Source: Escherichia coli
GTDB taxonomy: Bacteria; Pseudomonadota; Gammaproteobacteria; Enterobacterales; Enterobacteriaceae
Strand: one strand, 5' to 3'
NCBI RefSeq assembly: GCF_030013205.1
Contig: NZ_CP122648.1
DNA length: 64,000 nucleotides
The translations under genes and the position numbers were made by a program. The notes below the pieces were generated by a model. That model did not search any database and was not told where the DNA came from. It saw only the letters and a list, made by a program, of their open reading frames with translations. Positions 1 through 52,590 of this stretch are shown piece after piece. Position 1 is the first letter of the stretch. Every line of letters begins with the position of its first letter.

Positions 1-1218
1 TCAGAACGATGAACACGGCACACACCAGGCCAGCCATTGCGTCAATAAAATCATTGAAATCCAGCTTCGAGACGTTACTTAACATCAGCAAACCTACGTA
101 CATCAGAGCGGGTGCAGTGGCGTAACCAGGGATCAAAAATGACAACGGTGATAAGAACAAAATCAGCAGGAATAACGCCCCCACTACGGTTGCGGTCAAT
201 CCTGTTTTACCCCCGGCGGCGGTTCCTGCCGCTGATTCGATATAAACCGCTGCGGGCGCTGCGCCCACCAGGCCGGAGAATATTGAACTTACTGAGTCAC
301 TGGTCAGGGCTTTGCCGCCGTTGATGATCTGGTTGTCTTTATCCAACAAATTCGCCTGACCGGCGACGGCACGGATGGTACCAGTGGCGTCGAACACTGC
401 GGTCATCACCAATGCTAGTACACTCGGAAGTACAGTTGGCTGGAGTGCGCCCATAATATCGAGGCTGAAAATCAGAGACTTACCATCTTCGCCAGTCAGG
501 CTTGGCATCGCCACCAGACCGTGGTATTTCACCGCTGGATCAAAGATTAAGCCGATGATCGAAATTGCAATAATCACCAACAAGATCCCGCCTGGTACGC
601 GGCACTTTTCCAGACCGAAGATGACCGCCAGCCCCAGCAAGCTCATCATCACCGGGAAGGAGGTAAACGCACCGAGCGCCACTGGCAAGCCTTCAATCGG
701 GTTTTTGATAACCATTCCCACACCGTTAGCAGCAATCAGCAGCAGAAACAGGCCGATACCGATACCTGTACCGTGAGCTATCCCCATCGGTAAATTACGT
801 AAGATCCAGGTACGCACACCGGTTACGGAAATGGCGGTGAAGATGACGCCCATCAGAAAGACCGCGCCCAGTGCGACAGGAACGCTAATTTGTTGCCCGA
901 GAACCAGACTGAATGCGGTAAACGCCGTCAAGGAAATCGCGCAACCAATCGCCATTGGCAAATTGGCCCATAATCCCATCAGCAACGAGCCGAAGCCCGC
1001 GACCAGACAGGTGGCAACAAACACAGCTGCGGGAGGAAAACCTGCTTTGCCCAGCATTCCCGGAACGACGATAACGGAATAAACCATGGCCAGAAAGGTC
1101 GTTAAGCCAGCCAGTACTTCCTGACGAACGGTACTGCCACGAGCGGTAATTTTAAAATAATTATCCAGCGGCCCTGTGGCTTTGGTGCGTCCGGTGTTTG
1201 TAGGATGTCTCCAGACAT
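1..1218 (-). CDS. ghxQ: NCS2/AzgA-family purine (guanine/hypoxanthine) permease; 3' end lies beyond the window start; apparent frameshift near the 5' end
   Basis: Minus-strand ORF is open to position 1 and translates to ...[31 protein letters not shown]... and ...[19 protein letters not shown]. The ATG at 1218 has a GAGGA RBS but is in a different frame. Sits immediately downstream of guaD, as in E. coli. Confidence 0.75.
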
Positions 1219-1253
1219 AATGATGTCCTCACGAGGATGTTAAAGTTTTATTA

Positions 1254-2573
1254 TTAGTTGCGTTCGTACACCAGACGACCATCAACGTAGGTGCGGTAGA
1301 TCGAACGGTCATCGCCCAACGTCATCATCACGAACAATTTGTCGACTAAAGAAACAGAGTTGTCATAGCGCAGCTGTTGTAGCGGAGTGGCGGTGGGTTC
1401 CATCACCACGAAATCAGCCTCTTTGCCAGGTAAAAAGTTGCCAATCAAATCGTCAAGGCCCAGAGATTTCGCTCCGCCGAGCGTGGCCAGGTAAAATGCT
1501 TCATATGCTGAGAGGCGATAGCCTTGTAGTTGCAACACTTTGTAGGCTTCGTTTAGCGTTTGCAGCATGTTGAAAGTTGTTCCGGCACCGATATCCGTTC
1601 CCATGCCCACTTTGACTTTCTTCTGCCATGCTTTTTTCAAGTTGAATAAGCCGCTGCCGAGGTAAAGGTTGGAGGTCGGACAGAAAGCAATGCTGGATTT
1701 GGTTTCGCTGAGACGATCCCACTCTTTTTCTTCGAGATGGACGCAGTGAGCAAAGACACAGTTTTTACCTGTCAGGCCATACTGGTGATAAACATCCAGA
1801 TAACCATCATGTTCAGGATAAAGTTCTTTCACCCAGGCAATTTCATCTTTGTTTTCACAGAGATGGGTATGTACCCACGTATCCGGATATTCTTCTTTCA
1901 GGCGTTTCGCCATCGCCATCTGTTCAGGAGATGAGGTAGGGGCGAAGCGTGGCGTAATCGCATACAACAGACGACCATTTTTGTGCCAGCGCTCGATCAG
2001 TTCTTTGCTTTGGTGATAGCTGCTTTCGGCAGTGTCGAGCAGATAATCCGGTGCGTTACGGTCCATCATCACCTTACCGGCAATCATACGCATATTGATA
2101 TGACTGGCGGCTTCAAACAGCGCATCAACGGATTGCGGATGAACAGTGCCAAACACCAGCGCCGTGGTGGTTCCGTTACGTAAAAGCTGCTTGATGAAGA
2201 ACGCCGACATTTCGCGGGCGTACTCTAAATCCTCATAACGACGTTCAGTAGGGAAGGTGTGTTTATTCAACCACTCCAGCAATTGCTCACCATAGGCCCC
2301 CACCATTTCACTTTGCGGATAATGGATATGTGTATCGACAAAGCCCGGTACTATCAGTTTGCCGCGATAGTCGCGCACGCGAATGGTGTCAGGAATTTGA
2401 TGTTTTCCGTTTTCCCATTCGCCAAACCATTCCACTTTTCCCTGTTTAATGAGTAATAAACCATCCTCAATAAACCGCAGCGCAGAGGCAATCTCTTCCG
2501 GGTTATCGACCGTACGGGTGACATCAATAAAACTGCCTCGTACCGCTTTTAACGTGTGTTCTCCTGACATCAT
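1254..2573 (-). CDS. guaD: guanine deaminase
   Basis: ORF track 1254..2693; internal start MMSGEHTLKAV at 2573 preceded by a GGAG RBS; metal-dependent amidohydrolase motifs (PGFVDTHIHYPQ); 439 aa. Confidence 0.9.
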   Translation of the reverse strand: MMSGEHTLKAVRGSFIDVTRTVDNPEEIASALRFIEDGLLLIKQGKVEWFGEWENGKHQIPDTIRVRDYRGKLIVPGFVDTHIHYPQSEMVGAYGEQLLEWLNKHTFPTERRYEDLEYAREMSAFFIKQLLRNGTTTALVFGTVHPQSVDALFEAASHINMRMIAGKVMMDRNAPDYLLDTAESSYHQSKELIERWHKNGRLLYAITPRFAPTSSPEQMAMAKRLKEEYPDTWVHTHLCENKDEIAWVKELYPEHDGYLDVYHQYGLTGKNCVFAHCVHLEEKEWDRLSETKSSIAFCPTSNLYLGSGLFNLKKAWQKKVKVGMGTDIGAGTTFNMLQTLNEAYKVLQLQGYRLSAYEAFYLATLGGAKSLGLDDLIGNFLPGKEADFVVMEPTATPLQQLRYDNSVSLVDKLFVMMTLGDDRSIYRTYVDGRLVYERN

Positions 2574-28247: not shown

Positions 28248-29003
28248 ATTTTGAGTGCGGGACGCCTGAATAAAAAATCTCTGGGTATCGTGATGTTGTT
28301 ATCGGTTGGACTGCTTTTGGCGGGCTGCTCGGGTAGCAAATCATCCGATACAGGAACGTATTCCGGCTCCGTTTACACCGTGAAACGGGGGGATACGCTA
28401 TATCGTATTTCGCGCACCACGGGAACCAGCGTAAAAGAGCTGGCGCGACTGAACGGCATTTCCCCCCCTTACACCATTGAAGTTGGTCAGAAACTAAAAC
28501 TGGGTGGGGCGAAAAGTAGCAGTACACGTAAATCAACCGCCAAATCAACGACCAAAACCGCATCGGTTACACCGTCATCAGCAGTACCGAAATCTTCCTG
28601 GCCGCCAGTAGGGCAACGTTGTTGGTTATGGCCAACGACAGGGAAAGTTATCATGCCGTATTCGACAGCTGATGGCGGCAATAAAGGGATTGATATCTCA
28701 GCTCCACGGGGTACACCTATTTACGCCGCGGGTGCAGGAAAGGTGGTGTATGTGGGCAACCAGCTGCGTGGCTACGGTAATCTCATCATGATTAAACACA
28801 GTGAAGATTACATTACGGCTTACGCCCATAATGACACGATGCTGGTAAATAATGGGCAAAGCGTGAAGGCTGGGCAAAAAATCGCCACTATGGGGAGCAC
28901 TGATGCGGCATCGGTTCGCCTGCATTTCCAGATTCGTTACCGTGCAACGGCAATTGATCCGCTACGTTACTTGCCGCCTCAGGGCAGCAAGCCAAAATGC
29001 TGA
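28248..29003 (+). CDS. ygeR: LysM-domain, M23 peptidase-like lipoprotein
   Basis: TTG start after a GAGGA RBS; lipobox LLLAGCSG; LysM (YTVKRGDTLYRISR) plus C-terminal M23-like domain; 251 aa. Confidence 0.85.
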   Translation: MLSAGRLNKKSLGIVMLLSVGLLLAGCSGSKSSDTGTYSGSVYTVKRGDTLYRISRTTGTSVKELARLNGISPPYTIEVGQKLKLGGAKSSSTRKSTAKSTTKTASVTPSSAVPKSSWPPVGQRCWLWPTTGKVIMPYSTADGGNKGIDISAPRGTPIYAAGAGKVVYVGNQLRGYGNLIMIKHSEDYITAYAHNDTMLVNNGQSVKAGQKIATMGSTDAASVRLHFQIRYRATAIDPLRYLPPQGSKPKC

Positions 29004-29064: not shown

Positions 29065-29091
29065 GCCTTACGCATCTCGAAGCGGGCGTAG

Positions 29092-29165
29092 TTCAATGGT
29101 AGAACGAGAGCTTCCCAAGCTCTATACGAGGGTTCGATTCCCTTCGCCCGCTCCAAACAAACATT
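29092..29165 (+). tRNA. glyU: tRNA-Gly (anticodon CCC)
   Basis: 74-nt cloverleaf GCGGGCG...CGCCCGCUCCA; anticodon stem AGAGC/GCUCU around loop UUCCCAA; T-arm GGUUCGAUUCC. Confidence 0.95.
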
Positions 29166-29319
29166 TCTCAACGTCTACTAAAGTCCATCAAACCCACGAA
29201 TATCAAGCCTTCCAGCCATTTTCATAGTTTATTAACGTCTACTCACAACTACCAGAATCTACACACAGAAGTGTATAGTAATGCGTATAGGACAAAATTT
29301 ATTTTTTGGAGCTATACAC

Positions 29320-30534
29320 ATGCTGCTTTCAGACCTTGCCATCAGGCGCGCGAAGCCGAAAGAAAAGGCTTATACACTCAATGACGGTAACGGGCTTTCG
29401 TTGCTCATTGAGCCGAACGGTTCGAAAGGGTGGCGACTGCGCTACAGGTTTGCAGGAAAGCCCAAAATGTTGTCGTTGGGTGTGTACCCTGATGTGTCTC
29501 TGTCTGATGCCAGGGCGGCAAGGGATGAGGCTAAAAGGCTTCTTGCTGGTGGTATAAATCCAAGTGAGGCCAGAAAAGCCCAAAAGCGAGAACAGGCGAG
29601 CAAATTTGGCAATACTTTTGAGGGTATTGCTCGCGAATGGTACGAAAAGCGGATCGACAGGTGGTCATCGTCATACGCCGAGGAAATGATCGAGACGTTT
29701 GAAAAAGATGTTTTTCCGTACATTGGCGGTAGGCCGATCGCAGAAATTAAGCCGATGGAATTGCTGGCGGTTCTTTCCCGTCTTAATGACCGTGGTGCGA
29801 CTGAAAAATTGCGTAAGGTTCGCCAGCGATGCGGCGAGGTGTTCCGGTACGCAATCATCACCGGACGCGCCGAATATAATCCAGCCCCTGACCTGGTGAG
29901 CGCATTTGCTCCACATAAAAAAGAGCATTACGCCTATTTGAAGGCCGACGAACTGCCGGAATTTTTCCGCGTTTTTAATACGTACACCGGAAGCCAGATC
30001 GTCAAACTGGCAATGCGGCTATTAATTCTGACAGGTGTCAGACCCGGGGAATTACGGCAGGCAGAATGGCAGGAGATCGATTTTGATAATCGTTTGTGGG
30101 AAGTGCCTAAAGAACGAATGAAGATGCGCCGTCCGCATTGTGTGCCATTACCAGAACAGGCGATAAAAATACTGGAGCAGTTAAAAAACATGACAGGCCA
30201 GTATCAGTTTATTTTCCCCGGTCGTATTCGCCACAGTAAGCCAATGAGTGAAATGGCGATGAATGTGCTCATTCGTCGTATCGGCTATGCCGGGCGCGTT
30301 ACTGGTCATGGATTCCGGCACACCATGAGCACCATTTTGCATGAGCAGGGCTATAACACTGCGTGGATAGAAACGCAGCTCGCGCACGTCGATAAAAACT
30401 CAATTCGTGGCACGTACAACCATGCGCAATATCTGGACGGGCGGCGGGAAATGCTTCAGTGGTACGCTGATTATATGGATTCGCTCGAGCATGGCGGAAA
30501 TGTGGTGCATGGTGAGTTCGGAAAATGCGGGTGA
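29320..30534 (+). CDS. int: tyrosine integrase, P4 family
   Basis: ORF track 29281..30534; start taken at MLLSDLAIRRAKPK (29320); catalytic HGFRHT and RGTYNHA motifs. Confidence 0.9.
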   Translation: MLLSDLAIRRAKPKEKAYTLNDGNGLSLLIEPNGSKGWRLRYRFAGKPKMLSLGVYPDVSLSDARAARDEAKRLLAGGINPSEARKAQKREQASKFGNTFEGIAREWYEKRIDRWSSSYAEEMIETFEKDVFPYIGGRPIAEIKPMELLAVLSRLNDRGATEKLRKVRQRCGEVFRYAIITGRAEYNPAPDLVSAFAPHKKEHYAYLKADELPEFFRVFNTYTGSQIVKLAMRLLILTGVRPGELRQAEWQEIDFDNRLWEVPKERMKMRRPHCVPLPEQAIKILEQLKNMTGQYQFIFPGRIRHSKPMSEMAMNVLIRRIGYAGRVTGHGFRHTMSTILHEQGYNTAWIETQLAHVDKNSIRGTYNHAQYLDGRREMLQWYADYMDSLEHGGNVVHGEFGKCG

Positions 30535-30656
30535 CTGGTTGAGTATACAGTAGTAGACTTTGAGCGACGAAAGAAAAGGCTGTGTCTAGGGTCGCTCCCG
30601 AAAATCCGTACACCTCGACGGACTGGTACAGCCACTACAGTAGAGGACGCTGAGGT

Positions 30657-31460
30657 GTGCGTATGATTGATATTCATGCCGAATTAAACGAATACAAAAA
30701 AGATTTTATTTCTTTACGTGAATTTCTTGAGGTCGTGCTTAAGGTCGCTGGTGATGATTATGATGTTTCAGATGTCATAACTTGGATACTCAGGAGAATA
30801 AGCGGAGAACATATCCGCCTGTACACAGTAAATGAATTTAAGCTGTTGGAATCTTTTTGTAACCCGTATCGGGATGAATTTGATAATGATGTTCTTTATA
30901 GAAATCTGAATGCGGTTCGGAAACGTGGTTGTTTACCTGGTGAGAGGGATGAAAATGGTTTTCTGGTGTCCGGTTATTGGGAAGATCCCGAATTTGAGAA
31001 CATTGGATTTATAAGGGGTGAAATTTTCGCAATTTTTCCCGATGTCCTTGACGCGTTAACGAAGCTGGAAGGCGCTAACTCTTCTGAAAATGACGAGGCA
31101 CAAGGACGCGATATTGAAAAGAAAGAGTTGCGTACAGAGGATGATTTATTATCCCAAATCGCAATGCTGGAAAAAGAAAACGCAGAGTTAAGGGCAAGGA
31201 TAGAGCAGTTAGAGCAAGAGCGCCCGATACACTTATATAAATACTGGGATAAAGACCCATTAGCTAAGGCTATTGAGATTAGAAACAGAGAGTGGGCCAA
31301 TTACGATCCAGAAAATGATTTTGCCACCAGGGGAAATCAAGAAGCGATAACCAGGGAGCTTAAGCAGTGGGGGGCAAGTAATGCACTTGCAACGCTCATA
31401 GAGAGGACTGCCTGCCCTATTAACCGAGACAACAGCCAAAAGAACGCAAAGCCGGATTAA
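30657..31460 (+). CDS. hypothetical protein, 267 aa, C-terminal coiled coil; orphan cargo gene between int and alpA
   Basis: Complete ORF; predicted coiled coil (LSQIAMLEKENAELRARIEQLEQE); no catalytic motif recognised. Confidence 0.7.
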   Translation: MRMIDIHAELNEYKKDFISLREFLEVVLKVAGDDYDVSDVITWILRRISGEHIRLYTVNEFKLLESFCNPYRDEFDNDVLYRNLNAVRKRGCLPGERDENGFLVSGYWEDPEFENIGFIRGEIFAIFPDVLDALTKLEGANSSENDEAQGRDIEKKELRTEDDLLSQIAMLEKENAELRARIEQLEQERPIHLYKYWDKDPLAKAIEIRNREWANYDPENDFATRGNQEAITRELKQWGASNALATLIERTACPINRDNSQKNAKPD

Positions 31461-31475
31461 CGCACCATACCGCAT

Positions 31476-31619
31476 ACCCTGAGGGTGATTTACTGTTACC
31501 CTGAGGGTATTTTTTTATCTTCCCCGTCAATTTTACCATCACCCTTAGGGTAGATTTCCTCCCGATTACCATCACCCTTAGGGTAGATTTCCTTCCGGTA
31601 ACCATTAGGCCTGAGGGTA
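31476..31619. repeat. five copies of an imperfect palindrome CCCT-n-AGGGTA upstream of alpA
   Basis: Copies at 31476-31486, 31498-31508, 31541-31552, 31574-31585, 31609-31619; a 25-bp unit ACCATCACCCTTAGGGTAGATTTCC occurs twice. Confidence 0.7.
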
Positions 31620-31687
31620 TGAAAATATTCGTTATTTCTGTGCCATGATTACCTCGTCAAATTGAGTAGACGTTATGAGGTAAATAT

Positions 31688-31885
31688 ATGTCAAATACGC
31701 TTATTCGTTTAACAGAAGTTCAGCGTAGAACTGGATATAGCAAGGCATGGATTTATCGCCTTATGGGGCAAGGTAAATTTCCTGCATCAGTTAAAATTGG
31801 CTCGCGAGCTATTGCTTTCGTTGAGAGTGAAATTGACGAGTGGATTAATCAGCGTATTGCGGAATCACGCGGAACAGCTACCTGA
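31688..31885 (+). CDS. alpA: AlpA-family phage transcriptional regulator (MerR-like HTH)
   Basis: 65-aa ORF; VQRRTGYSKAWIYRLM...FPASVKIGSRAIAFVESEIDEWI is the AlpA signature. Confidence 0.85.
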   Translation: MSNTLIRLTEVQRRTGYSKAWIYRLMGQGKFPASVKIGSRAIAFVESEIDEWINQRIAESRGTAT

Positions 31886-31962
31886 TTAAATGGCTACGGG
31901 GCTATTGCCCCCAGCTATCCACCAGCAAATAAAAGTAACTTAATTCGATAGCAGGAGTTTTT

Positions 31963-32763
31963 ATGAAATTTCCAAAAACGCCCGTACAGGGGCGGGGCTT
32001 CGTTCGGCCTGAAAACCAGAATCTGCAAAATTTCGGCGAAATTATCCCGATTATTTCCGGCGTTATTGGCGGGAGTGAAACCACTATTGTTAGCGCCAGA
32101 GCGTTACATAAGGCGTTAGGTGTAGGGCGCGTTTTCCGTTCGTGGATCAAGGGGCGCATTGAAGAATATGGGTTCACGGAAGGCGTGGATTATAAGGTTG
32201 TTGAATATTTGAGCCGACCCGATCCGGTGAGCGCAAAATCTCGCCAGCAAACCGCTCTTGAGTACATCATCACAGTGAACATGGCGAAAGAACTGGCGAT
32301 GGTCGAACGTACCGAACAGGGCCGCGCCGTTCGCCAGTACTTTATCAAATGCGAGGAGGAGCTACACAAGGTTGCGCCTGTTCGTTCCGCAGCGTTACGC
32401 CGGGAACTGAAAGCCCGTATCACAGTTGCCAGCTACTTTAAGCCAATGTGTGCCGCGCTGGAGGCGTACCGGGCTGAACTGGGTAAAAACACACTCCAGC
32501 ACCACTACACCACGGAAGCGAACATGCTGGCGCGTATCGTGCTGGGTGGCATGACTGCAAAACAGTGGGCACTGGCGAACGGCATTACAGGCGAACCACG
32601 CGACCACATGAGCACGTTGCAGCTTGAGCACCTTTCTTACCTTGAGCAGAGCAATATCACGCTGATTGAGTTAGGCCAGGACTACCACCAGCGGAAGGCT
32701 GAATTAATTCGTCTTTCGCAGCGTTGGTTAGCCCGTCGCATGGAGGAAAACAGCCATGTGTAA
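31963..32763 (+). CDS. phage antirepressor-like protein (Bro-N/AntA-type N-terminus)
   Basis: 266-aa ORF; the N-terminal region resembles phage antirepressor proteins. Confidence 0.6.
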   Translation: MKFPKTPVQGRGFVRPENQNLQNFGEIIPIISGVIGGSETTIVSARALHKALGVGRVFRSWIKGRIEEYGFTEGVDYKVVEYLSRPDPVSAKSRQQTALEYIITVNMAKELAMVERTEQGRAVRQYFIKCEEELHKVAPVRSAALRRELKARITVASYFKPMCAALEAYRAELGKNTLQHHYTTEANMLARIVLGGMTAKQWALANGITGEPRDHMSTLQLEHLSYLEQSNITLIELGQDYHQRKAELIRLSQRWLARRMEENSHV

Positions 32764-33237
32764 CGCTCTGACCGTTACAAAAAGAAAAAGCGCCCCGTTG
32801 CCGGAGCGCCTTTGTGAACGAATAGCCTACTGCGCCATATTGCTTACTGTCTACGAGGCAGATTATAGCGTTGTGGTCGCACAGAGTGAAGGCGCTGATC
32901 ACCGTTACTACAGCACACCAGAAATGCAGAATATTTTGCTGCAAAATGTCGTTGGCCACGCTGTCCGGAAAGCAAAAAATTTTGCTGGTGGCGTGACTGA
33001 TACGATTTTTTCTGGTTGCTCGGTGCTGATCAACTTAACCTGGACTTATGTACAACATTGCAACTATTCCTACTTTAAGCTGAATGTAACTTTACCTATA
33101 TCATTAGAGGTATGGTCGCGCTTGACCTCAATTTCACCATTTTGTAGCCCTGCTACAAAAAAATATAAAAGTGTCAATGTTGCTGCAATCAGTAACCATT
33201 TTCCAAAAATATACATTCTTGATTTTACCCTTAATCG

Positions 33238-33411
33238 TCAACCTTTTGGCACGATGCCTCGCTGTTGTAATTCTTTGCGGAGCACTCGTTTAATCCAGGT
33301 AGCTAATGAGGTGTCGCCGTCTGCTTTGGCTGCCTCCTCAAGTTGTGCCCTAAATTCTTCTGGTAGCCGCATTTGGTATGGTGGCGATCGTTTTTCTAAT
33401 GGTGTTGACAT
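33238..33411 (-). CDS. Arc/MetJ-type ribbon-helix-helix DNA-binding protein (57 aa)
   Basis: Manual translation MSTPLEKRSPPYQMRLPEEFRAQLEEAAKADGDTSLATWIKRVLRKELQQRGIVPKG; below the 60-aa ORF-track cutoff; start abuts a palindromic operator. Confidence 0.6.
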   Translation of the reverse strand: MSTPLEKRSPPYQMRLPEEFRAQLEEAAKADGDTSLATWIKRVLRKELQQRGIVPKG

Positions 33412-33451
33412 GGTAATTACCCATAATTACTATAGTTACACGGTAATTACC
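33412..33451. promoter_or_regulatory. putative operator: two perfect GGTAATTACC palindromes 30 bp apart
   Basis: Palindromes at 33412-33421 and 33442-33451 in the divergent region between the Arc-like gene and the 33548 gene. Confidence 0.55.
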
Positions 33452-33547
33452 ATTGTACTTACCATTGCAAAAAAAACAACGCCCCGGACTGCGGGAACAG
33501 TACCAGGGCGTCTAACCACCAACGATAGCGAAAGTATCGAGGTAGCT

Positions 33548-33751
33548 ATGATAAATCATACCACACACCCGCAAGGGCGGGACTCGCACAACCTGAATAA
33601 ATACATCTGGCGTTTTATCGCCCTGAGCACGGCACAACCGCGCGTGATTCACATCGAGGCCACCAGCGAACAGGAAGCCCGCCAGCAATCTCCTGATGGC
33701 TGCGTGATGGTATTCGCTGCCCGTATTCGCCAGGAGGTACGCCATGATTAA
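33548..33751 (+). CDS. hypothetical small protein (67 aa)
   Basis: ATG at 33548 with a GAGG RBS; 8-nt overlap with the next ORF. Confidence 0.55.
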   Translation: MINHTTHPQGRDSHNLNKYIWRFIALSTAQPRVIHIEATSEQEARQQSPDGCVMVFAARIRQEVRHD

Positions 33752-34109
33752 CCTGTCACTTACCGACCTTCACCGCATTCAGTTTGACGAGAAATTTACC
33801 GGGCAGCTACTGGTCCATGTGGAGAACGGGCGCATAGTGCGTAATTACCACCTGCCGGATGGTGCAATTGCCGGAAGCGTTGAAGCATTGCTGGAAATGG
33901 CAGAACGTGCGCGACTGATTAAGCCGTTAACGTGCCATCACGATGATGATCTGCATTTTACCGGACGCATGGTGAGCCATTATGAAAACGGCGTTGAGGT
34001 ATCCCGCGAACGTCTGCGTGATGATTGCTGTTTCGGCACATTGCCGGAATTTATCGAATTGCTGACCGATTGCGGTTATCAGGTAATTCAGAGCAAGACG
34101 CAGGAGTAA
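33744..34109 (+). CDS. hypothetical protein (121 aa)
   Basis: ORF track; operon context upstream of primase. Confidence 0.6.
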   Translation: MINLSLTDLHRIQFDEKFTGQLLVHVENGRIVRNYHLPDGAIAGSVEALLEMAERARLIKPLTCHHDDDLHFTGRMVSHYENGVEVSRERLRDDCCFGTLPEFIELLTDCGYQVIQSKTQE

Positions 34110-34115
34110 AAAACC

Positions 34116-34406
34116 ATGAAAAAGAAAAATTCTGGCTTTACTGCCAGCGGCCCCGCTCGGCCTGAAATCAAACACGGCGATATTTACCGCGACACCAGAC
34201 GTGGGGGACGAGTGGTTATTCGTCACGTTACGCCAGGCAATATCACCTACCGCCGTGAGGCTTACGAATATGACTGCGTAATGCCGCGCCGTCAGTTTGA
34301 GCGTGATTTTATTCTGGTGGAAAACAAACAACAGGCGGTGGCGAGACGTGCAGCCACGAATATTAAAAAAATCCGGGCAATGTTGGTTGCGGGAGGTAAG
34401 AAGTGA
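34116..34406 (+). CDS. hypothetical protein (96 aa)
   Basis: ORF track; 4-nt overlap with the primase start. Confidence 0.6.
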   Translation: MKKKNSGFTASGPARPEIKHGDIYRDTRRGGRVVIRHVTPGNITYRREAYEYDCVMPRRQFERDFILVENKQQAVARRAATNIKKIRAMLVAGGKK

Positions 34407-36208
34407 AAAACGCCCCGAATTTAAAATATCAGCCGAAGGATAAATTCACTGAGGTAATCATTTTTGCCGGGACGGATGCTTACGCCCATGCTCAACACTG
34501 GATTGAAAGCGAAGGACGAAAACACGGCGATAACGTACCACCTGTTTACCTGGGGCCGAAGCAACTGGCAGACCTGGCGAACATCCGCATTATCGACGAA
34601 GGGCGCCGCTTTGCGCGTGTCTATATCGCAGGGGAGATCGAACCAATTCAGATCAACGCTATCGCCGAAAAGCTGGCACTGGCTGGCGTACAGGAGGCGA
34701 AATTATACAAAGGCATCACCGACCGGGAGCCGGAGAACTGGCGCGATTACCTGCAACGGATCCGCGAACAGGCAGAGCGCGGGGAAGTTTCAGCGATGAA
34801 ATTAGTCACAAAAAATAGTGACCTACCCAGGCCAGCACTAAATCAGATGGGAGCCAGCCAGAGAGGGGAAGTATTGCTTGAATATTATGGAAGGGCACTG
34901 GCTATAAATGACGATTCTGATGTAGTTCACCATTACAACGGAATTGTCTGGGAGCCTGTATCTGATAAGGAACTCCAGCGGTCTATGGCGAAGATTTTTA
35001 TTGATGCTGGAATCAGTTATTCGCAAAACGCCATTAAATTTGCCGTAGACACAATGAAATTGAGCCTGCCTGTTATGGGCGGGGCAGACAGGAATCTTAT
35101 TGGATTCAGTAACGGGGTATTTGATACCCGGACAGGAAATTTTCGGGAGCATAACAAAAATGACTGGTTGTTAAATGCCAGTGAATTACCGTTCAGCCCA
35201 CCAGCAGAGGGGGAAACGCTGGCAACACATGCGCCGAATTTCTGGAAGTGGCTGCGTCGTTCGGTGGCAAATAACGATCGTAAAGCGGATCGCGTACTGG
35301 CGGCATTATTCATGGTACTGGCGAACCGGTACGACTGGCAGTTATTCCTTGAGGTAACGGGGCCGGGCGGAAGCGGTAAAAGTGTGATGGCGGAGATTTG
35401 TACCATGCTGGCGGGTAAGGCCAATACAGTATCGGCGAGCATGAAGGCGCTGGAAGACGCGAGGGAACGAGCGTTAGTGGTGGGATATTCTCTGATTATC
35501 ATGCCTGACATGACCCGCTACGCAGGTGATGGTGCTGGGATTAAGGCCATTACAGGCGGTGACAAGGTGGCAATCGACCCGAAACATAAAGCCCCCTACT
35601 CCACACGTATTCCGGCGGTAGTGCTGGCAGTAAACAATAACGCCATGTCATTCAGTGATCGCAGTGGAGGGATCTCGCGTCGTAGGGTGATATTTAATTT
35701 CTCTGAGGTCGTACCGGAGAACGAACGCGATCCCATGCTGGTGGAAAAAATAGAAGGCGAACTGGCGGTAGTGATTCGCCATTTGCTTACACGATTTGCC
35801 GACCAGGACGAAGCGAAAAGACTACTTTATGAGCAGCAAAAATCAGAAGAAGCACTGTTAATAAAGCGTGAAGGTGATTCGCTGGTGGACTTCTGCGGTT
35901 ATCTGATGTCGTTGGTTAAATGTGAGGGGATGATAGTAGGTAATGCAGAAATAGTGCCATTTAGCCCGAGGCGATATCTGTATCATGCTTATTTGGCTTA
36001 TATGTCTGCGCATGGTCTGGGAAAACCGGTATCACTGACACGCTTTGGTACAGATATGCCAGGGGCAATGGCTGAGTACGGAAAGGAGTACAAGCGGGCT
36101 AAATGCACTAAAGGTCCAGATAAAGGGCGAACGATCACAAATGTTCTGTTAGATAAAGATGCTGATGGATGGTTACCAGCAGCGGCAGGCATTAACGACA
36201 GAACATGA
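34403..36208 (+). CDS. phage/satellite-type DNA primase-helicase (P4 alpha / D5-like)
   Basis: 601-aa ORF; Walker A GPGGSGKS; followed directly by an iteron array. Confidence 0.8.
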   Translation: MKNAPNLKYQPKDKFTEVIIFAGTDAYAHAQHWIESEGRKHGDNVPPVYLGPKQLADLANIRIIDEGRRFARVYIAGEIEPIQINAIAEKLALAGVQEAKLYKGITDREPENWRDYLQRIREQAERGEVSAMKLVTKNSDLPRPALNQMGASQRGEVLLEYYGRALAINDDSDVVHHYNGIVWEPVSDKELQRSMAKIFIDAGISYSQNAIKFAVDTMKLSLPVMGGADRNLIGFSNGVFDTRTGNFREHNKNDWLLNASELPFSPPAEGETLATHAPNFWKWLRRSVANNDRKADRVLAALFMVLANRYDWQLFLEVTGPGGSGKSVMAEICTMLAGKANTVSASMKALEDARERALVVGYSLIIMPDMTRYAGDGAGIKAITGGDKVAIDPKHKAPYSTRIPAVVLAVNNNAMSFSDRSGGISRRRVIFNFSEVVPENERDPMLVEKIEGELAVVIRHLLTRFADQDEAKRLLYEQQKSEEALLIKREGDSLVDFCGYLMSLVKCEGMIVGNAEIVPFSPRRYLYHAYLAYMSAHGLGKPVSLTRFGTDMPGAMAEYGKEYKRAKCTKGPDKGRTITNVLLDKDADGWLPAAAGINDRT

Positions 36209-36236
36209 TACGAAATTTATAAGTTGAAACTTAAAA

Positions 36237-36572
36237 GTAGACGGTTGGTAGACAGATACACTTAACCCTCTACCAACCATCTACTAATTAATGTTTTGAA
36301 TTATATAGGTATTTTTAATGTGGTAGAGAGGTGGGCAGTTATTTCTATATTCCTAAACCACGGGGGGTATATAAAAAAACAGATAGTTAAGGGTTCATTT
36401 TTTAAATTTCTCTTTTAACTGTCTACACTGTCTACCATTTAGTAAAAATCATTAATTATCAATGTATTAATGCGGTAGACAGTTAGTAGACAGTTTGCAG
36501 ATTGTTTTTTTGTTATGAGTTAATAACATTAAATAAATCAATCAATTATATCGGTAGACAGTTGGTAGACAG
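36237..36572. repeat. putative replication origin: paired GGTAGACAG iterons flanking an AT-rich segment
   Basis: GTAGACGGTTGGTAGACAG (36237-36255), inverted copy (36268-36284), TGGTAGAGAGGTGGGCAG (36321-36338), inverted pair (36419-36436), GCGGTAGACAGTTAGTAGACAG (36473-36494), TCGGTAGACAGTTGGTAGACAG (36551-36572). Confidence 0.7.
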
Positions 36573-36580
36573 TTGTAACG

Positions 36581-37123
36581 ATGGGGCAAAGCATGACTAA
36601 GCTGACCATTAACAGAAAACCGAAAGGCATTTATGGCACGCCGCAGAAAACGACGCAGGCGGCACAGGAGCAGGATAAAACCACGTCGGCGCATAAAGTG
36701 ATGCCCGGTAACCAGAAAGCGCAGCAGAAGCCCACAGGGGCGACACCGTGGCGGCATATGACCAAGCGCCAGCGCAAAAACCGCAGGCGCATTAACCGCC
36801 TCACTGAGTTGTGGCCTGAATTATTCAGCCGGGAAGCACCGAAGCCGCTTAAGGTGGGGATATTCGACGACCTGATGCAGGATCTCGCCGTCAGGGGGCT
36901 GGCATTCGGTCCAGGGGCATTGCGTGCGACGCTGGCATCTTATGCACAGTGTCCGCGCTATTACCGCGCCTTAATGGCTGGTGGGGTACGCTACGACCTG
37001 AAAGGCCAGCCGTGCGGCGAGGTGACACCACAGGAACAACAGGACGCAGAAACGCGGCTGGTGGCGCTGAATGAGAAGCGCAAACGTCAGCGCCGGGTAG
37101 CAAAGGAGAAAACAGGCGCATGA
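36581..37123 (+). CDS. ProQ/FinO-domain RNA-binding protein
   Basis: PLKVGIFDDL...LRATLASYAQCPRYYRAL...YDLKGQPCGEV parallels ProQ (PLKIGIFQDL...LRSALRLYTSSWRYL...VDLDGNPCGEL). Confidence 0.75.
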   Translation: MGQSMTKLTINRKPKGIYGTPQKTTQAAQEQDKTTSAHKVMPGNQKAQQKPTGATPWRHMTKRQRKNRRRINRLTELWPELFSREAPKPLKVGIFDDLMQDLAVRGLAFGPGALRATLASYAQCPRYYRALMAGGVRYDLKGQPCGEVTPQEQQDAETRLVALNEKRKRQRRVAKEKTGA

Positions 37124-37407
37124 TTCACGACAGCAAAGCGGAAGCACTGGAAGCGCGTGGTCTGTACCGGAGAGCGGCGGCGCGGTGGGCTGAGGTCATC
37201 ATGCTGGCGAATGATGACAAGGCACGGGAACAGGCGGCAAAACGTCGCGCGGAATGTATCCGCAAGGCAGCACGCCCACCAGCACGGCAGGATAATTTCG
37301 GGGAGATGCGCGAAACCATCAGCCGGGCACATGCCGGGATGGGATTACATCAGCCCAATGGTAAGGCATTCAGGAAATACCCTGGATCGAAAAATTGCAG
37401 TCAGTGA
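37120..37407 (+). CDS. PerC-family transcriptional activator-like protein
   Basis: 95-aa ORF; SKAEALEARGLYRRAAARWAEV matches the PerC-family N-terminal signature; ATGA overlap with the upstream gene. Confidence 0.6.
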   Translation: MIHDSKAEALEARGLYRRAAARWAEVIMLANDDKAREQAAKRRAECIRKAARPPARQDNFGEMRETISRAHAGMGLHQPNGKAFRKYPGSKNCSQ

Positions 37408-37608
37408 CGGAGGCCGGGATTTTTCCCGGCTTTTTTGTGCCAGTAAAAAGCCCGCAGCCAGAAGTGTTGCGGGCTTTGTTTTTCAGGTGATTGAAGTCAA
37501 TGGGAAGAACGCGATCATCATGCGTTATTGTTTCATAAATTGCAATGATGTAGATCGTCATTTCAGTTTGTGCAATCATAATCGTTGTTTTGTTCAGGAG
37601 ATATGACT

Positions 37609-37782
37609 ATGAGAAAAGCCAGCGTGAAACCTGTTTTACTCGCTCGTGATCAGATTGAAGCATTACAGCGCATCCAGGACGAGGAACGCCGCAATTCTCC
37701 GCTGGGGATTGCTCCGAGCATTCATGAGGTCGCCCGGCGTTTAATGCAGCGGGCGCTTTATCCCGTAGAACGTCCGGCCTGA
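37609..37782 (+). CDS. hypothetical small protein (57 aa)
   Basis: ATG at 37609, 9 nt after an AGGAG RBS; ORF track 37585..37782. Confidence 0.45.
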   Translation: MRKASVKPVLLARDQIEALQRIQDEERRNSPLGIAPSIHEVARRLMQRALYPVERPA

Positions 37783-37821
37783 TGGTCGTGATTTTTTGGT
37801 GAAAAAAGAGAGGTGGTAAAA

Positions 37822-38400
37822 ATGCCAGCAAGCAAAGAAGATTTGCGATTAAAACTGATGGAGGTGGTTAACGCTCTGTCAGAGTCGCAGGGCAGCACTC
37901 CGCAGGAGATTATCGAAATTCTGAATGCGATCCCCGCACAGGATTTCATAAAAGAGGATAACGCTAATCAAAACATCGTCGCGTCAGTCGAAGATGAATC
38001 CTCACTGGCAGAAGCCCAGGCCAAAGCGGATTCCGCATACAGCAATATGGGCCGTCGAGCTCCGGCCCCGTTTGCTGGTGAAAAGTCGATGGATTACCGC
38101 AAGCGTGCATTAATTGGCGCACAGAAGCTGGCTAAAAAATTCAGTGATGTGGATATTCGTTCCGTTTCAGATTCTGCAACGCTGGCGGTGCTGGAAGATC
38201 AGATTTACAAGGCTGCTCAGGAAAGTGCTCAGTGGGCCGTGGAAAACACGCCGGGTTATTTGACTAAAAAAGTCAGGATGGATGAAGCCGGGCGCCGGAT
38301 TACTGAATATCAGGGGGATCCGAATAACTGGCTTAGTGCTTTCAAAATCCCTCCCCGTCGCCTGGTCAAAATTAACGTTGCAAGCCTCGCGGGGGCATGA
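37822..38400 (+). CDS. hypothetical protein (192 aa)
   Basis: ORF track 37813..38400; ATG at 37822 follows GAGAGGTGG. Confidence 0.65.
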   Translation: MPASKEDLRLKLMEVVNALSESQGSTPQEIIEILNAIPAQDFIKEDNANQNIVASVEDESSLAEAQAKADSAYSNMGRRAPAPFAGEKSMDYRKRALIGAQKLAKKFSDVDIRSVSDSATLAVLEDQIYKAAQESAQWAVENTPGYLTKKVRMDEAGRRITEYQGDPNNWLSAFKIPPRRLVKINVASLAGA

Positions 38401-38464
38401 AAAACGTGCTGATTTCAGCCCTGCCGGATTTGGCGGGGCTTATTGATTATAACCGGGTGACATT

Positions 38465-39148
38465 ATGCTTTTAACAGAAATTGAGGCGGCAAAGCAGATT
38501 CGGGACGGTCAGCTACCGTCGCCTTATCAGTTCTCCAACATGTGGCTGGTTAACCTGCGTATTACAGGGACTGGCATGGCCTACCGCGCCGAAGAAAAAG
38601 AATTTGTCTGGCGTTCACCGCAAACTTATCTCAATCCGCAGTTCCTGGAACGTTGCGCCGGAGTACCCGTCATTATCGACCATCCCGAAGGCAAAACCAT
38701 TGAAGACGTTGGCGAACGGTCGCGCATTATTGGCACCGTCATGTTGCCGTATATTCGCGGTGACGAGGTGTGGGGTGTATGCCGGATTTACGGGCAGGAA
38801 ATCATCGATTACATCCAGAAAGCACGGGGGGAGGTATCCACCAGCCCGTCGGTTGTGTTTTGTGGTGCGTCCGGTGGGGCAGAAGTTCCTGATGTAATGG
38901 GCGAGGACAATTTTTTCATTGAGGGTACGCCATTTCTTATCGATCACGTTGCGCTCGTACCGTTGGGCGTATGGGATAAGGGCGGGAAACCATCAGGTGT
39001 GGAAGTAACAACGCCGACAGAAGAAGAACAGCTCGCCGGAATGGTCCGTGAAGTTATTGATGCGGCCTGCAAGCCAGCTCTGGAAAAACTGGAAGAAATA
39101 TCCGGGCGGCTGGATCAACTGGAAAAAAACAGAGTGAGTGAATCATGA
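38465..39148 (+). CDS. hypothetical protein (227 aa)
   Basis: ORF track; overlaps the next gene by 4 nt. Confidence 0.65.
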   Translation: MLLTEIEAAKQIRDGQLPSPYQFSNMWLVNLRITGTGMAYRAEEKEFVWRSPQTYLNPQFLERCAGVPVIIDHPEGKTIEDVGERSRIIGTVMLPYIRGDEVWGVCRIYGQEIIDYIQKARGEVSTSPSVVFCGASGGAEVPDVMGEDNFFIEGTPFLIDHVALVPLGVWDKGGKPSGVEVTTPTEEEQLAGMVREVIDAACKPALEKLEEISGRLDQLEKNRVSES

Positions 39149-39762
39149 AAATTGCTAAAAACTTAAATCTGATTATCCCTGTGCGCACTGAAAAGGGTAA
39201 TGGCTGGCTCCATGCCACGCCGATCAGCAAAGAGGTGTTTAAAGAGCATTTCTTCATCCTGAGTAAAACCTTTTCTGCCATTTTTTCTGAAGGTCTTGGT
39301 GTTGTTGCGGGTCCGCGCGTTGCCTGCCTTATGCTGGAGAAAATCTCCCGTGACTCCGGTTTATGGGATGGGGAGAAAGGCATACGTAATACGCTCATAA
39401 ACGAAATTATTCGCCTGGCAAACCTTGTTTATCCAGTGGAGGGCAAAGGCTACGACACAATCCCTCTCGATATGGCGCTGGAGCGTGAAATCGTTGATTT
39501 GGACGAAGTGGCGGGTGAACTTGTTTTTTTTACATGCGTCTCGTCGATAAATTCCCCGGAGCAGACGAAGGGGACTATGGATGCGGTGAATGGAATATGG
39601 AGCACTCAATGCTCGTCCTTGAGTCTTACGGAATGGATCGATTCATTGCCGACATTGAAGCCTGCCGTCAGTTCTGGCGCGACGGCGAACACGTCATCAG
39701 CGACATCCTCGACTACTCAGCCGGAGCCGGATTCAGAGACATCTGTGCAGATTCCGGTCTGA
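39145..39762 (+). CDS. hypothetical protein (205 aa), Ser/Thr-rich C-terminus
   Basis: ORF track; translationally coupled to the upstream gene. Confidence 0.65.
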   Translation: MKIAKNLNLIIPVRTEKGNGWLHATPISKEVFKEHFFILSKTFSAIFSEGLGVVAGPRVACLMLEKISRDSGLWDGEKGIRNTLINEIIRLANLVYPVEGKGYDTIPLDMALEREIVDLDEVAGELVFFTCVSSINSPEQTKGTMDAVNGIWSTQCSSLSLTEWIDSLPTLKPAVSSGATANTSSATSSTTQPEPDSETSVQIPV

Positions 39763-39826
39763 ATGTAAAAACAGCAGCTCAGTTTCGTGAGCTGCTCAAA
39801 TTCAAAAATCCCGCAGGAGTATTGTA

Positions 39827-41866
39827 ATGTCAGGTAATCAGATGCCAGTTCTGACGCTGGACGTTAATGAAGAACACCTCAAACGGCTTGAGGCAATTTT
39901 TGAAAAGTATCGCAACGGGCTGATGATCGGCCCTGCCGGAACGCCGATGAAAATACCGGGGCAAAGTGGGCGCAGCGTGGGGGCAGGCTTACCCGTGGCG
40001 GCAAAATCTGGTCGGACAGGACCGGATGTATCCGGGAGAGTGAGGGACGAAAAAGGGCGCTTTGTCGGCAGCGGAAAAACAGCAGATTCGTTCGTAAGCA
40101 ACTATAAAGGTCGCGGCGAAACGATGTTTGATAAGTATCTCAGCGGGCTGGGGAAAAATGCCCAACAGACGCTGAAAACTTACAAGCAGATCAATTCTAC
40201 ACTACAGACGACCACTTCAAGATTAAACAACCTGTTTAAAACAACCGTATCGTGGGGAACAAAACTCTCGGTTATGGGCGTTGCCGGACCGTTTGGCTTT
40301 GGCATGATGTCCCGTAGTGTTGTAGAGAAACAGAAAAATGCAGATGAGCTGGTGGCAACGCCAGGAGAGTTAAAGGCGGCAGAAAGCACTTATTCGCCTT
40401 ATTTTTCCGGTGTTGGCAATGTGCTCAATACACTGGCAGCAGCACAAAATGATATATCGCATCCTGCCCGCGTCGGCCTGCTTAATCTGGGGCTAAATCC
40501 TGATAAAAACGCGACTGAAAACCTGCCTGTATTCCTGAAAAAGGTTGCAGAGCTGGCAAAGGAATATCAGGGAAGTGGTCTTACCCAGAGCATGCTCAGG
40601 GGAAGAGGGCTTGGATGGGTAAATTTTGGTCTTACTAACCAGTTAGTCAAATATCAGGACAAAATACCTGAACTCAACAAAGAGTTTTCGTTACGTGCAG
40701 CGCAGAATGATTCGTTACTGACCTCTGCACATACAAGTAAATATCAGAATATTACCAGTAACCTGGAAAAAAACTGGGATCGGCTTACCAGCGGATTTCA
40801 GGGAGCAATGGCGGGGAATGAAGACGCTTTAATCAGAATGTCTGATGGTGCCACGAATGCTGCCCTGAATTTCATGAATGGTGAGAACTTTAAAAGGATT
40901 CTGACGGATGTAGAAACGGGGCTGGATAAACTTGGTAAGTACGTAAATGGCCCGGATTTTAATAACGACCTGAACAATTTTGCCGAAAACGTTGCAAAGG
41001 TTGTTAAGGCACTTAGCGGGTTTGTTGGTTTTGCGGTTGAACATCCCTGGCTTTTTGGGGCCGCAGTACTTGCTGGACCATCGAGAGTTGGTGCTGTGGC
41101 AGCCACAACGACCGGAGTTGCCGCCCGTGTTGTTGGTGGAAGTCTTCTTGGGGCTACAGCCGGAACAGTAGCTGGATTGGCTATTCCTACAAATGACACA
41201 CCTACCACCAGTGAGGAAATGAAAGGGCTGGAGGGGCGTTTCAACTTTGATTATTTTAACGAAGTGCAGGAGTGGCAAAAAAACAATCCGGGTAAGGTCT
41301 GGCCTGGAGGATTGCAGGGATTTTCAAATCAAGTAAACAGATCTGCATATTTATCCAGAGGGATCAGGAATAACAATCCCGGAAATCTTAATTTCGCAGG
41401 ACAAAAAGGGGCTACCCTGGAATCGGGGCCAAATGCCCGTTTTGCCAGCTTCCCGACGATGCTGGAAGGCATTGCCGCCTTAGATCGGCAGGTAATGCTA
41501 TACCTGAAACGCGGCAAAAATACGATTGATCAGATTATTGATATTTATGCCCCTTCATCTGATGGAAATAACACATCGTCCTATAAAAGCTATCTCTCTC
41601 AGTACACCGGATTAGGTGTTAAGGAGAAAATCGATGGTTCTAATTTTGAGGTCATGAAAAAGCTAATTCAGGGCATTATTAACCATGAAAATGGTGCTGC
41701 CGCTAAAGCTGTAAGTGTTGAAGATGTGATCCGGGCGCTGGCTATGAATCGTGGGATTGTCCCTGCAGCAGGAAACAATGATCAGAACGTTAAGTTGGAA
41801 ATTGTTCGGAACGCTGGTGCCGATTACTTCGCGCAACTAATTGGTGCTCAACGGTTCCTGGGATGA
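39827..41866 (+). CDS. large hypothetical protein (679 aa) with glycine-rich hydrophobic segment, tape-measure-like
   Basis: AGGAG RBS; central segment AVLAGPSRVGAVAATTTGVAARVVGGSLLGATAGTVAGLAI; function not assignable from sequence. Confidence 0.7.
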   Translation: MSGNQMPVLTLDVNEEHLKRLEAIFEKYRNGLMIGPAGTPMKIPGQSGRSVGAGLPVAAKSGRTGPDVSGRVRDEKGRFVGSGKTADSFVSNYKGRGETMFDKYLSGLGKNAQQTLKTYKQINSTLQTTTSRLNNLFKTTVSWGTKLSVMGVAGPFGFGMMSRSVVEKQKNADELVATPGELKAAESTYSPYFSGVGNVLNTLAAAQNDISHPARVGLLNLGLNPDKNATENLPVFLKKVAELAKEYQGSGLTQSMLRGRGLGWVNFGLTNQLVKYQDKIPELNKEFSLRAAQNDSLLTSAHTSKYQNITSNLEKNWDRLTSGFQGAMAGNEDALIRMSDGATNAALNFMNGENFKRILTDVETGLDKLGKYVNGPDFNNDLNNFAENVAKVVKALSGFVGFAVEHPWLFGAAVLAGPSRVGAVAATTTGVAARVVGGSLLGATAGTVAGLAIPTNDTPTTSEEMKGLEGRFNFDYFNEVQEWQKNNPGKVWPGGLQGFSNQVNRSAYLSRGIRNNNPGNLNFAGQKGATLESGPNARFASFPTMLEGIAALDRQVMLYLKRGKNTIDQIIDIYAPSSDGNNTSSYKSYLSQYTGLGVKEKIDGSNFEVMKKLIQGIINHENGAAAKAVSVEDVIRALAMNRGIVPAAGNNDQNVKLEIVRNAGADYFAQLIGAQRFLG

Positions 41867-41917
41867 TTTAAATACACGCGCTTTCCGGCGCATTAATACA
41901 GTCTGAGGGGAAGTGTC

Positions 41918-42445
41918 ATGTTTATGAGCAAGGCAGAATATGCCAAACACAAAGGCGTAAGCCGCCAGACAGTTTACGACTGGATCGAGAAAGGCGAAGT
42001 GATCATGTCTGGCAAAAAAATTGATGTGGAAGCGACAGAGCAGCGGAACAGCCCACCAGCACAGGGAAAAGATACCGTTTCTGAAATGTGGCCAGAGAGA
42101 ACGCTGGAAATGACGTGGGGCGAGTTCTGGAAAGCAGTTAAGGCCAGAGACGGTAAAATCCCTGCACCAGTAACGGACAATGACATACAGCAGCGTGTAC
42201 AGGATGCAGCCGGGGAACTATGCTGTGAAGTGCAATTTCTTGATGATGGTGCTATCTGCCTTGAGGATTATGCTGGGCAATATTACTTTGAGCAGTATGA
42301 TTTTCGGGAAAATGCCAGGCTGGCAATTCGTATGCTGCGTTGTGAGCTCTGCTATGTTGCAGGTGATTGTCCCGATGAGCTGGATAACTGGAGTGAAGCC
42401 GGACTAAACGCCCTGGCTGAGTGGGAAAAATCAGGCCATCAATGA
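41918..42445 (+). CDS. HTH protein resembling terminase small subunit Nu1 N-terminus
   Basis: N-terminal KAEYAKHKGVSRQTVYDWIEKGEV resembles the lambda Nu1 winged-HTH region; GAGGGGA RBS; 175 aa. Confidence 0.55.
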   Translation: MFMSKAEYAKHKGVSRQTVYDWIEKGEVIMSGKKIDVEATEQRNSPPAQGKDTVSEMWPERTLEMTWGEFWKAVKARDGKIPAPVTDNDIQQRVQDAAGELCCEVQFLDDGAICLEDYAGQYYFEQYDFRENARLAIRMLRCELCYVAGDCPDELDNWSEAGLNALAEWEKSGHQ

Positions 42446-42451
42446 CCTCAA

Positions 42452-42732
42452 AAAGTGTCAAGTTGAGCAGCTTGCCAGGTTGACACTTTACACTCTGAAC
42501 GCGAAAAAGTGTCAACCTCGCTGTAAGCCCCGCCATTACTGGCCTTTCGCCAGATTTACCACGTCAAAAAGCCGAAAAAATCGCGAAAAGTGTCAAGTTG
42601 CCATGCTTAGAAATGCTAAGGTTTGATAAGGTTTTTCGCGAAAAAGTGTCAAGTGTGTCAACCTGCGATGTTAAGATTTGTTAAGGTCTTAAGCCGGAAA
42701 GTGTCAACCAGCCCCCTAAGATTTCCTAAGGT
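42452..42732. repeat. array of AAAGTGTCAA direct/inverted repeats interleaved with TAAGATTT-nn-TAAGGT motifs
   Basis: AAAGTGTCAA at 42452, 42506, 42587, 42643, 42698; inverted copy 42480-42489; TAAGATTTnnTAAGGT at 42673 and 42717. Confidence 0.75.
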
Positions 42733-42739
42733 GTAAACC

Positions 42740-42919
42740 ATGACCATCACCGAAGCCGATTTGCTGGAGATGATCCGCAGCATTGCCGGAATCAAACAAC
42801 CAGCAAGCAAAATTAACAGGTGTTCAGCGCCTGTTTCCGTTGTGCTGCAGCAGGAACGCCACCAGCATGATGATGTGAGGCCGTATCAGTGGCGGAAACC
42901 GGACAGGCCGCGACGGTGA
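42740..42919 (+). CDS. hypothetical small ORF (59 aa)
   Basis: ATG after an AAGGTG RBS just downstream of the repeat array; below the ORF-track size cutoff. Confidence 0.3.
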   Translation: MTITEADLLEMIRSIAGIKQPASKINRCSAPVSVVLQQERHQHDDVRPYQWRKPDRPRR

Positions 42920-43385
42920 GCGGAACGTTCGGTAAGGCTACAGCCAAGCCAAACATTAAGCCTACGGGTAACCCTTCGAAGGGGCTTTAAAGGGGAGATG
43001 ATTATCCTTACCAGTTGATAAACAAGCAAACCTCAAATTTGAGGTTTGTATCTGCCTGACTTATTTTTGTGCTAAGTTGTTGATATATCCGACGACACAA
43101 ATTTGCGTTCTGTGGCTGGTGGTGGCGAGTTACGACCGATCATTTCCTTCCTGGCAGGTTACATCCTGCTGCTCAACTACTACGGTAGCCACTACGATTA
43201 ACTACGCGATGCCGATATGGGGATTCCCATATCGGTTTATCCGTGATCATCCACCAGCTTGATCACGGTTAACAGGGGATGTGTAATCCCCAAGCGAGTG
43301 ATAAATGTGTATAGAAATGTGTATAGAATTTATTTTAGAACTCGCGAATGCGCCTTTATTACTGGCCTTGTGGCTTGTTGTATTG

Positions 43386-43403
43386 TTCCCTTCGCCCGCT
43401 CCA
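43386..43403 (+). repeat. att direct repeat (18-bp copy of the glyU 3' end) at the island 1 / island 2 junction
   Basis: TTCCCTTCGCCCGCTCCA is identical to tRNA positions 29148-29165. Confidence 0.85.
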
Positions 43404-48463: not shown

Positions 48464-48472
48464 GGAGAATAA

Positions 48473-48742: not shown

Positions 48743-48838
48743 CAACAGATCGGGCAATACATATGGCAAATGCATTTATGGCGATATTCATTGTAACAAT
48801 GGTATCAAGTTTTTATAATCCACATAAAAAGAGGGAAA

Positions 48839-49222: not shown

Positions 49223-49237
49223 TAAAATGATGGGAGT

Positions 49238-51391: not shown

Positions 51392-51407
51392 GAAGGAATA
51401 AATAATA

Positions 51408-52436: not shown

Positions 52437-52590
52437 AAAGTGTTAAAGACGTTCCCCTACGTCTGGAAATAATCGGGGCAATAAGGGTAAGGGATAATCA
52501 TATAAGCAAAATATGCGCTGTCTCTTGCACTTTTTGTTTTTCTACTGTCTACAAACCCAAATAAAAATATATATATGTGAGAGAAAACCA

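Follow-up and report, generated by a model that had tools for sequence, protein, structure and literature searches.

The window, by which we mean the whole 64,000-nucleotide stretch of Escherichia coli DNA analyzed here, begins inside ghxQ (ygfQ), a guanine/hypoxanthine permease gene that is read toward the left edge and whose 3′-terminal 149 nt fall outside, past that edge (Table 1). According to the annotations, this part of the window corresponds to the E. coli xanQ-guaD-ghxQ / ygfS-ygfT locus, and hence to the conserved context of a GhxQ ortholog. Within it, ghxQ is the terminal gene of a co-oriented cluster, and its other neighbor, ygfS, is convergent. The locus is missing from ~4.5% of complete E. 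coli genomes, as the guaD-ghxQ junction (window 1000–1400) found no match in 246 of the 5,426.

Table 1 Features of the ghxQ locus in the window, with coordinates on the given strand and the observation on which each entry is based
Feature	Coordinates	Strand	Observation
ghxQ (ygfQ) pseudogene, guanine/hypoxanthine permease gene	1..1218	-	Identical to the ghxQ that PGAP labels 'frameshifted' in K_EC180, W13-16 and ETEC1748
Met45 ATG, first canonical start in the permease frame	1085..1087	-	14 nt past the premature stop; putative product of 411 aa, without half of TM1
Truncated frameshift product, 38 aa	1102..1218	-	16 native residues and 22 out-of-frame residues, then TAA 1104-1102
T_TTA_AAA heptamer, X_XXY_YYZ shape	1150..1156	-	In -1 register only in the mutant frame; candidate site, unstimulated
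1-nt deletion site	1170..1171	-	G missing between the two bases, codon 17 (GCG, Ala); alignment
Authentic ghxQ start codon ATG	1216..1218	-	Position matches the annotated K-12 b4464 start and all aligned alleles
Shine-Dalgarno GAGGA	1226..1230	-	7 nt 5′ of the ghxQ ATG; read from the sequence
guaD (guanine deaminase), intact	1254..2570	-	Directly upstream of ghxQ, 35-nt gap; annotation

The remainder of the window holds several further blocks. A tRNA-Gly gene at 29081–29154 is followed by an island at about 29319–43700 with genes for a tyrosine integrase, an antirepressor, an Icd-like protein, a DNA primase, a ProQ/FinO protein, a PerC regulator, a NUDIX hydrolase and a lytic transglycosylase; the island resembles a satellite or PICI-like element inserted at tRNA-Gly. 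A second mobile-looking block, at about 48100–57460, consists of many small hypothetical genes together with genes for a major capsid protein (52159–53187), a baseplate protein (55466–56143) and, on the opposite strand, a second tyrosine integrase (56237–57457). Type III secretion genes extend from about 60744 to the right end of the window at 64000 and include sctC, a YopN/InvE-type gatekeeper and an EscV-family export protein; their presence is consistent with the ETT2 locus.

At the 5′ end of ghxQ, the reading frames disagree in the manner described in the original prediction: the ATG at 1218, which is supported by a ribosome-binding site, is out of frame with the permease ORF. On the minus strand, this ATG opens an ORF of 38 codons that closes at the TAA 1104–1102. 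The permease frame is open from the TGA at 1231–1229 through to the left edge of the window, and, as had also been claimed, it offers no ATG, GTG or TTG after this stop until the ATG at 1087–1085, which corresponds to Met45 of GhxQ; only the rare-start codons CTG (1168, 1114 and 1093) and ATT (1150) precede Met45 in this frame. A 1-bp indel had been postulated at about 1168–1172, and alignment to intact alleles confirms it, placing a missing G between 1171 and 1170 in the context CAGGGC[G]CGCTGG (intact allele, CAGGGCGCGCTGG; window, CAGGGCCGCTGG). Over 160 nt around the start, this is the single difference from the intact allele (intact, CAGGGCGCGCTGGAT; window, CAGGGCCGCTGGAT), and the proposed comparison with reference ghxQ thus comes down to one G missing from codon 17, with everything else around the start unchanged. 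Consequently, no uninterrupted ORF for all 14 TMs runs from the authentic start, the codon-17 deletion leading to a stop after 38 codons. When the G is restored, the two frames jointly encode GhxQ exactly, and the two-frame arrangement is therefore not a chance pattern. The 38-aa frameshift peptide has no exact match in the protein collection that was searched.

The 1,218 nt of ghxQ in the window are identical to the allele of strain K_EC180, and re-insertion of the G into the full-length K_EC180 gene yields a 455-aa ORF that is 100% identical to K-12 GhxQ (b4464), as befits a GhxQ ortholog. Compared with the K-12 DNA, the repaired gene shows 25 nucleotide differences, all of which are synonymous, and it differs from the allele of strain CFSAN018748 at two positions. 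The sequence points to a gene that was under purifying selection until the deletion arose, and the lesion is recent, since nothing else in ghxQ has decayed. The Xan_ur_permease family (PF00860) is precomputed on the 411-aa product of the Met45 ORF, and the protein is homologous to the solved AZG1 and AZG2 structures. A scan of the intact, truncated and 38-aa products with the NCBIfam HMMs gave no hits, and the family assignment therefore rests on the identity to the K-12 protein and on the Pfam and PDB matches.

For the distribution of the allele, a 60-nt query centered on the deletion was compared with complete E. coli genomes, 5,180 of which contain the locus. Of these 5,180, 14 have the exact deletion allele; in the remaining 5,166, the alignment spans 61 nt, and they therefore carry the extra base. 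Over window positions 1–25000 (25 kb), no genomes other than these 14 reach ~100% identity, which means that the deletion follows phylogeny exactly. Next closest over this interval is CFSAN018748, at 99.7% and with an intact ghxQ, so that the lesion is absent from the nearest genome outside the clade as well as from the species at large. Among the carriers, K_EC180 comes from swine in South Korea, W13-16 from wild boar in France and P15-25 from a pig in France, and the remaining eleven are swine genomes named ETEC followed by four digits, of which the one examined, ETEC1748, is from Belgium. Both W13-16 and P15-25 were typed as O139:H1 ST1, and their assemblies draw on PacBio RSII (50x) as well as Illumina (50x) reads (PMC8798679). 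An identical allele across 2.7 kb is present in the Logan short-read assembly SRR14934078, besides 13 similar places, and the lesion is thereby reproduced over independent assemblies and technologies, i.e., over three countries, PacBio combined with Illumina, and short reads. ETEC1738 shares its accession series with the Belgian ETEC genomes and represents a different lineage; it does not belong to the 14 carriers, and its gene is intact. PGAP labels ghxQ as 'frameshifted' in all three carrier genomes that were examined (K_EC180, W13-16 and ETEC1748).

The window thus derives from a 14-genome swine/wild-boar clade, the two typed members of which are O139:H1 ST1, the porcine edema-disease clone, and the ghxQ lesion is specific to this lineage, not to one strain, as it is common to all 14 complete clade genomes. 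The original prediction had offered a strain-specific pseudogene, a sequencing error or a start at a later methionine; the pseudogene stands, and its confinement to a strain gives way to a lineage-wide distribution. We are highly confident that the frameshift in the clade of the window is a genuine lineage-specific pseudogene, and that the deletion is real, single and recent, and was passed on to all sequenced clade members. No plausible alternative start gives a complete protein, the first canonical one being Met45, in the middle of TM1. The same allele with an annotated internal start, an observation that would have spoken for a shorter functional protein, was not encountered; RefSeq annotates such alleles as 'frameshifted' pseudogenes.

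The alternative that survives best, albeit as an improbable one, is a leaky rescue in which some ribosomes slip by -1 at the T_TTA_AAA heptamer and produce a full-length GhxQ variant, the allele being a hypomorph from which the cell still benefits. The heptamer lies 15 nt downstream of the deletion, where the mutant-frame codons are ATT-TTA-AAA; it is of the X_XXY_YYZ type and in register in the mutant frame only, and a -1 slip at this site is predicted to give full-length GhxQ in which ALDNYF (residues 17–22) is replaced by RWIIIL and the sequence is native again from K23. Spontaneous -1 suppression of single-base deletions in E. coli has been reported at 1–10% in aggregate for two test proteins (PMC10861913); however, heptamers without stimulators slip in E. 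coli at just 2–10 times the ~0.055% background (PMC4066793), and stimulators are not apparent here. The 50 nt located 3′ of the heptamer have a folding energy of -12.9 kcal/mol versus a shuffle mean of -12.6 kcal/mol (z = -0.10), and a downstream RNA structure was rejected as a frameshift stimulator because the hairpin is no more stable than its shuffled counterparts. Likewise, no Shine-Dalgarno-like stimulator (GGAGG-like) is present 6–14 nt upstream of the heptamer, in GCTGGATAATTA. Moreover, the slip would leave six residues altered, among them L18, D19 and F22, which are common to GhxP and GhxQ, and the register of the heptamer is a by-product of the recent deletion, not a conserved signal: the two-frame arrangement occurs in one recent clone only, and 5,166 of the 5,180 genomes have a single frame.

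At most, trace leakiness is expected at the heptamer, and of an accidental rather than a programmed kind. Because -1 slippage can partly suppress deletions and the heptamer is in register, the ghxQ allele could be a severe hypomorph instead of a strict null. We give little credence to the stronger proposal that the ST1 allele is a natural, translationally self-suppressing hypomorph and not a null, as would be the case if a small percentage of ribosomes restored the frame.

Still less probable, and in our estimate very unlikely, is the remaining functional reading of the lineage-specific pseudogene, according to which ghxQ is expressed as a 411-aa permease by internal initiation or re-initiation at Met45, the methionine of the AMVYS motif. 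Termination-reinitiation is conceivable, the ATG being so close behind the premature stop, and the 411-aa Met45 ORF is called by gene callers on 310 contigs in public data. However, this ATG is not preceded by a Shine-Dalgarno sequence, and Met45 sits at the center of the first hydrophobic segment of GhxQ, which peaks at residue 44 and, by hydropathy, assigns TM1 to approximately residues 35–53, so that only half of TM1 would be left after a start at this position. The transport domain of the 7+7 inverted-repeat fold comprises TM1–4 and TM8–11 (PMC11992111) and thus includes TM1. The residues that would be lost also include the conserved N-terminal motif of the family (residues 20–44), which is maintained from E. 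coli to Arabidopsis: GhxQ residues 20–60 align to residues 35–75 of AZG1 (FK..R.ST...E..AG..TFL.M.Y), and the AZG1 structure 8irl is matched with E = 5.6e-36. Furthermore, the sampled 411-aa calls all stem from broken alleles, and none of the intact alleles is annotated with a Met45 start. As half of TM1 and the conserved motif are missing from it, we consider the Met45 product to be non-functional, and the suggestion of a start at the AMVYS methionine is abandoned.

The weakest alternative is a sequencing or assembly error, in which case the G would be present in the organism and ghxQ intact; single-base indels are the typical long-read error, and the placement of the K-12 ghxQ tag b4464 between b2883 and b2886 might be read in the same sense, but the deletion site (between GGGC and CGC) is not a homopolymer, the identical deletion recurs in 14 assemblies from three countries, including Illumina-polished PacBio data, and in the short-read-only Logan assembly, ETEC1738 of the same accession series and a different lineage is not a carrier, and the distribution of the allele tracks phylogeny exactly, so that this option, with hardly any probability left to it, falls away and an artefact as the source of the deletion is effectively excluded. 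As regards the numbering, K-12 ghxQ (NC_000913.3, 3027121–3028488) carries the locus tag b4464 between b2883 (guaD) and b2886 (ygfS); presumably the gap reflects an early split of the gene into b2884 and b2885 caused by sequence errors, the two being merged after correction, in which case real sequencing errors had at one time broken this very gene in the reference genome.

The 411-aa calls lead to further lesions at the 5′ end of ghxQ. Eight sampled places with the 411-aa ORF, in drafts and metagenome assemblies, hold four different lesions, i.e., the ST1 1-nt deletion, a 4-nt loss at a tandem repeat, a Mu-like insertion, and a change of the start codon from ATG to ATA. In the 4-nt lesion, one CTGG copy of the tandem CTGGCTGG is lost (window equivalent 1114–1107, minus strand), which leaves a 37-aa stub and the Met45 ORF. 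This deletion is located at about 1470–1480 in the loci L008, L009, L010, L012 and L013, all from drafts or metagenome assemblies, and since the backgrounds differ by 16–39 SNPs per 2.7 kb, recurrent slippage at the tandem is suggested. That the 4-nt deletion allele might be common in E. coli was considered and rejected, as it occurs in 0 of 5,180 complete genomes. In the Mu-like insertion (L014:1380–1490), unrelated sequence and Mu-family transposase genes replace everything upstream of about codon 37. The final bases of this insertion match the Mu end sequence. The ATG-to-ATA change is at L015:1369–1371, and the source names of the 411-aa entries include a protein of Shigella boydii ATCC 9905. 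The 411-aa Met45 gene call was rejected as a marker of the ST1 lineage, since at least four different lesions give rise to it. Because several independent 5′ lesions are found, loss of ghxQ has occurred repeatedly, in keeping with dispensability.

In the proposed course of events, ghxQ of the ST1 clade, which codes for one of two paralogous symporters of the AzgA-like NCS2/NAT branch, lost one G in codon 17. Ribosomes would start at the ATG at 1218, translate 16 native and 22 out-of-frame codons and terminate at 1104–1102, and the 14-TM permease would consequently not be made. GhxQ transport activity is therefore predicted to be absent from the clade of the window. GhxP and GhxQ are described as a closely related guanine/hypoxanthine transporter pair in PMC5210515 and PMC6308229, both of which cite Papakostas 2013, and guanine/hypoxanthine transport by GhxQ is known for the K-12 protein only (Papakostas 2013, as cited in PMC5210515). 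The loss should be tolerated in view of the intact GhxP paralog, the terminal position of ghxQ and the silent K-12 ygfQ deletion. With respect to the first point, ghxP is annotated as intact in ETEC1748 (4,650,720–4,652,069) and encodes a protein with 83% identity to GhxQ. With respect to the second, ghxQ is last in its transcription unit and the next gene is convergent, so a polar effect of the premature stop would not arise. Finally, the main importer in K-12 appears to be YjcD (GhxP), and deletion of ygfQ, alone or together with a yjcD deletion, left the sensitivity to purine analogs unchanged (PMC3809563). Taken together, the loss of ghxQ was probably near-neutral.

The frameshift is already known, in that it is flagged by RefSeq/PGAP, and it represents an ordinary, recent, single-lesion pseudogene; a literature search for 'ghxQ' returned nothing on inactivation of the gene in the O139:H1 ST1 clone. 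For annotation, it follows that the PGAP label of a frameshifted pseudogene is the appropriate one, in preference to the 411-aa Met45 permease that gene callers report for broken alleles on hundreds of contigs. In epidemiological terms, the loss of the single base provides a clean marker common to all 14 complete genomes of the clade, two of which are typed as O139:H1 ST1, and with regard to physiology, it adds to the evidence that GhxQ can be dispensed with as long as GhxP is present. Beyond correct annotation, the finding is of little importance and opens no newly testable question.

A second annotated frameshift concerns actS (ygeR), which encodes an amidase activator, at window positions 28251–29002 (plus strand); the gene is labeled 'frameshifted' in the matching genome ETEC1748. 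It was rejected as a second clade-specific marker, since the exact 752-nt allele also occurs outside the 14-genome clade, for example in N3 (human), CFSAN018748, EC556 and XJ6.1 (bovine), and it is an older and more widespread variant, or possibly an annotation issue.

Programmed -1 frameshift sites, such as those of dnaX, IS911 and IS3, resemble the ghxQ allele in having an in-register X_XXY_YYZ heptamer between two frames. They differ in that the ghxQ allele has no stimulatory structure, no upstream Shine-Dalgarno sequence and no conservation, and owes its two frames to a recent deletion; it is not a member of the programmed -1 frameshifting class. The other 5′ ghxQ lesions leave the same 411-aa Met45 ORF behind, but they are independent mutations at other positions and in other backgrounds. 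GhxP (YjcD) is a paralog with 83% identity and the same substrates that is intact in the same lineage as the window, yet it is encoded at a separate locus, soxR-ghxP-yjcE, and is the reported principal importer in K-12. K-12 GhxQ itself (YgfQ, b4464), a guanine/hypoxanthine:H+ symporter of the AzgA-like COG2252 subfamily of NCS2/NAT, shares with the window allele the same locus and, once the G is restored, the same protein; the difference between them is one G of codon 17, the absence of which leaves the full protein unencodable from its own start codon.
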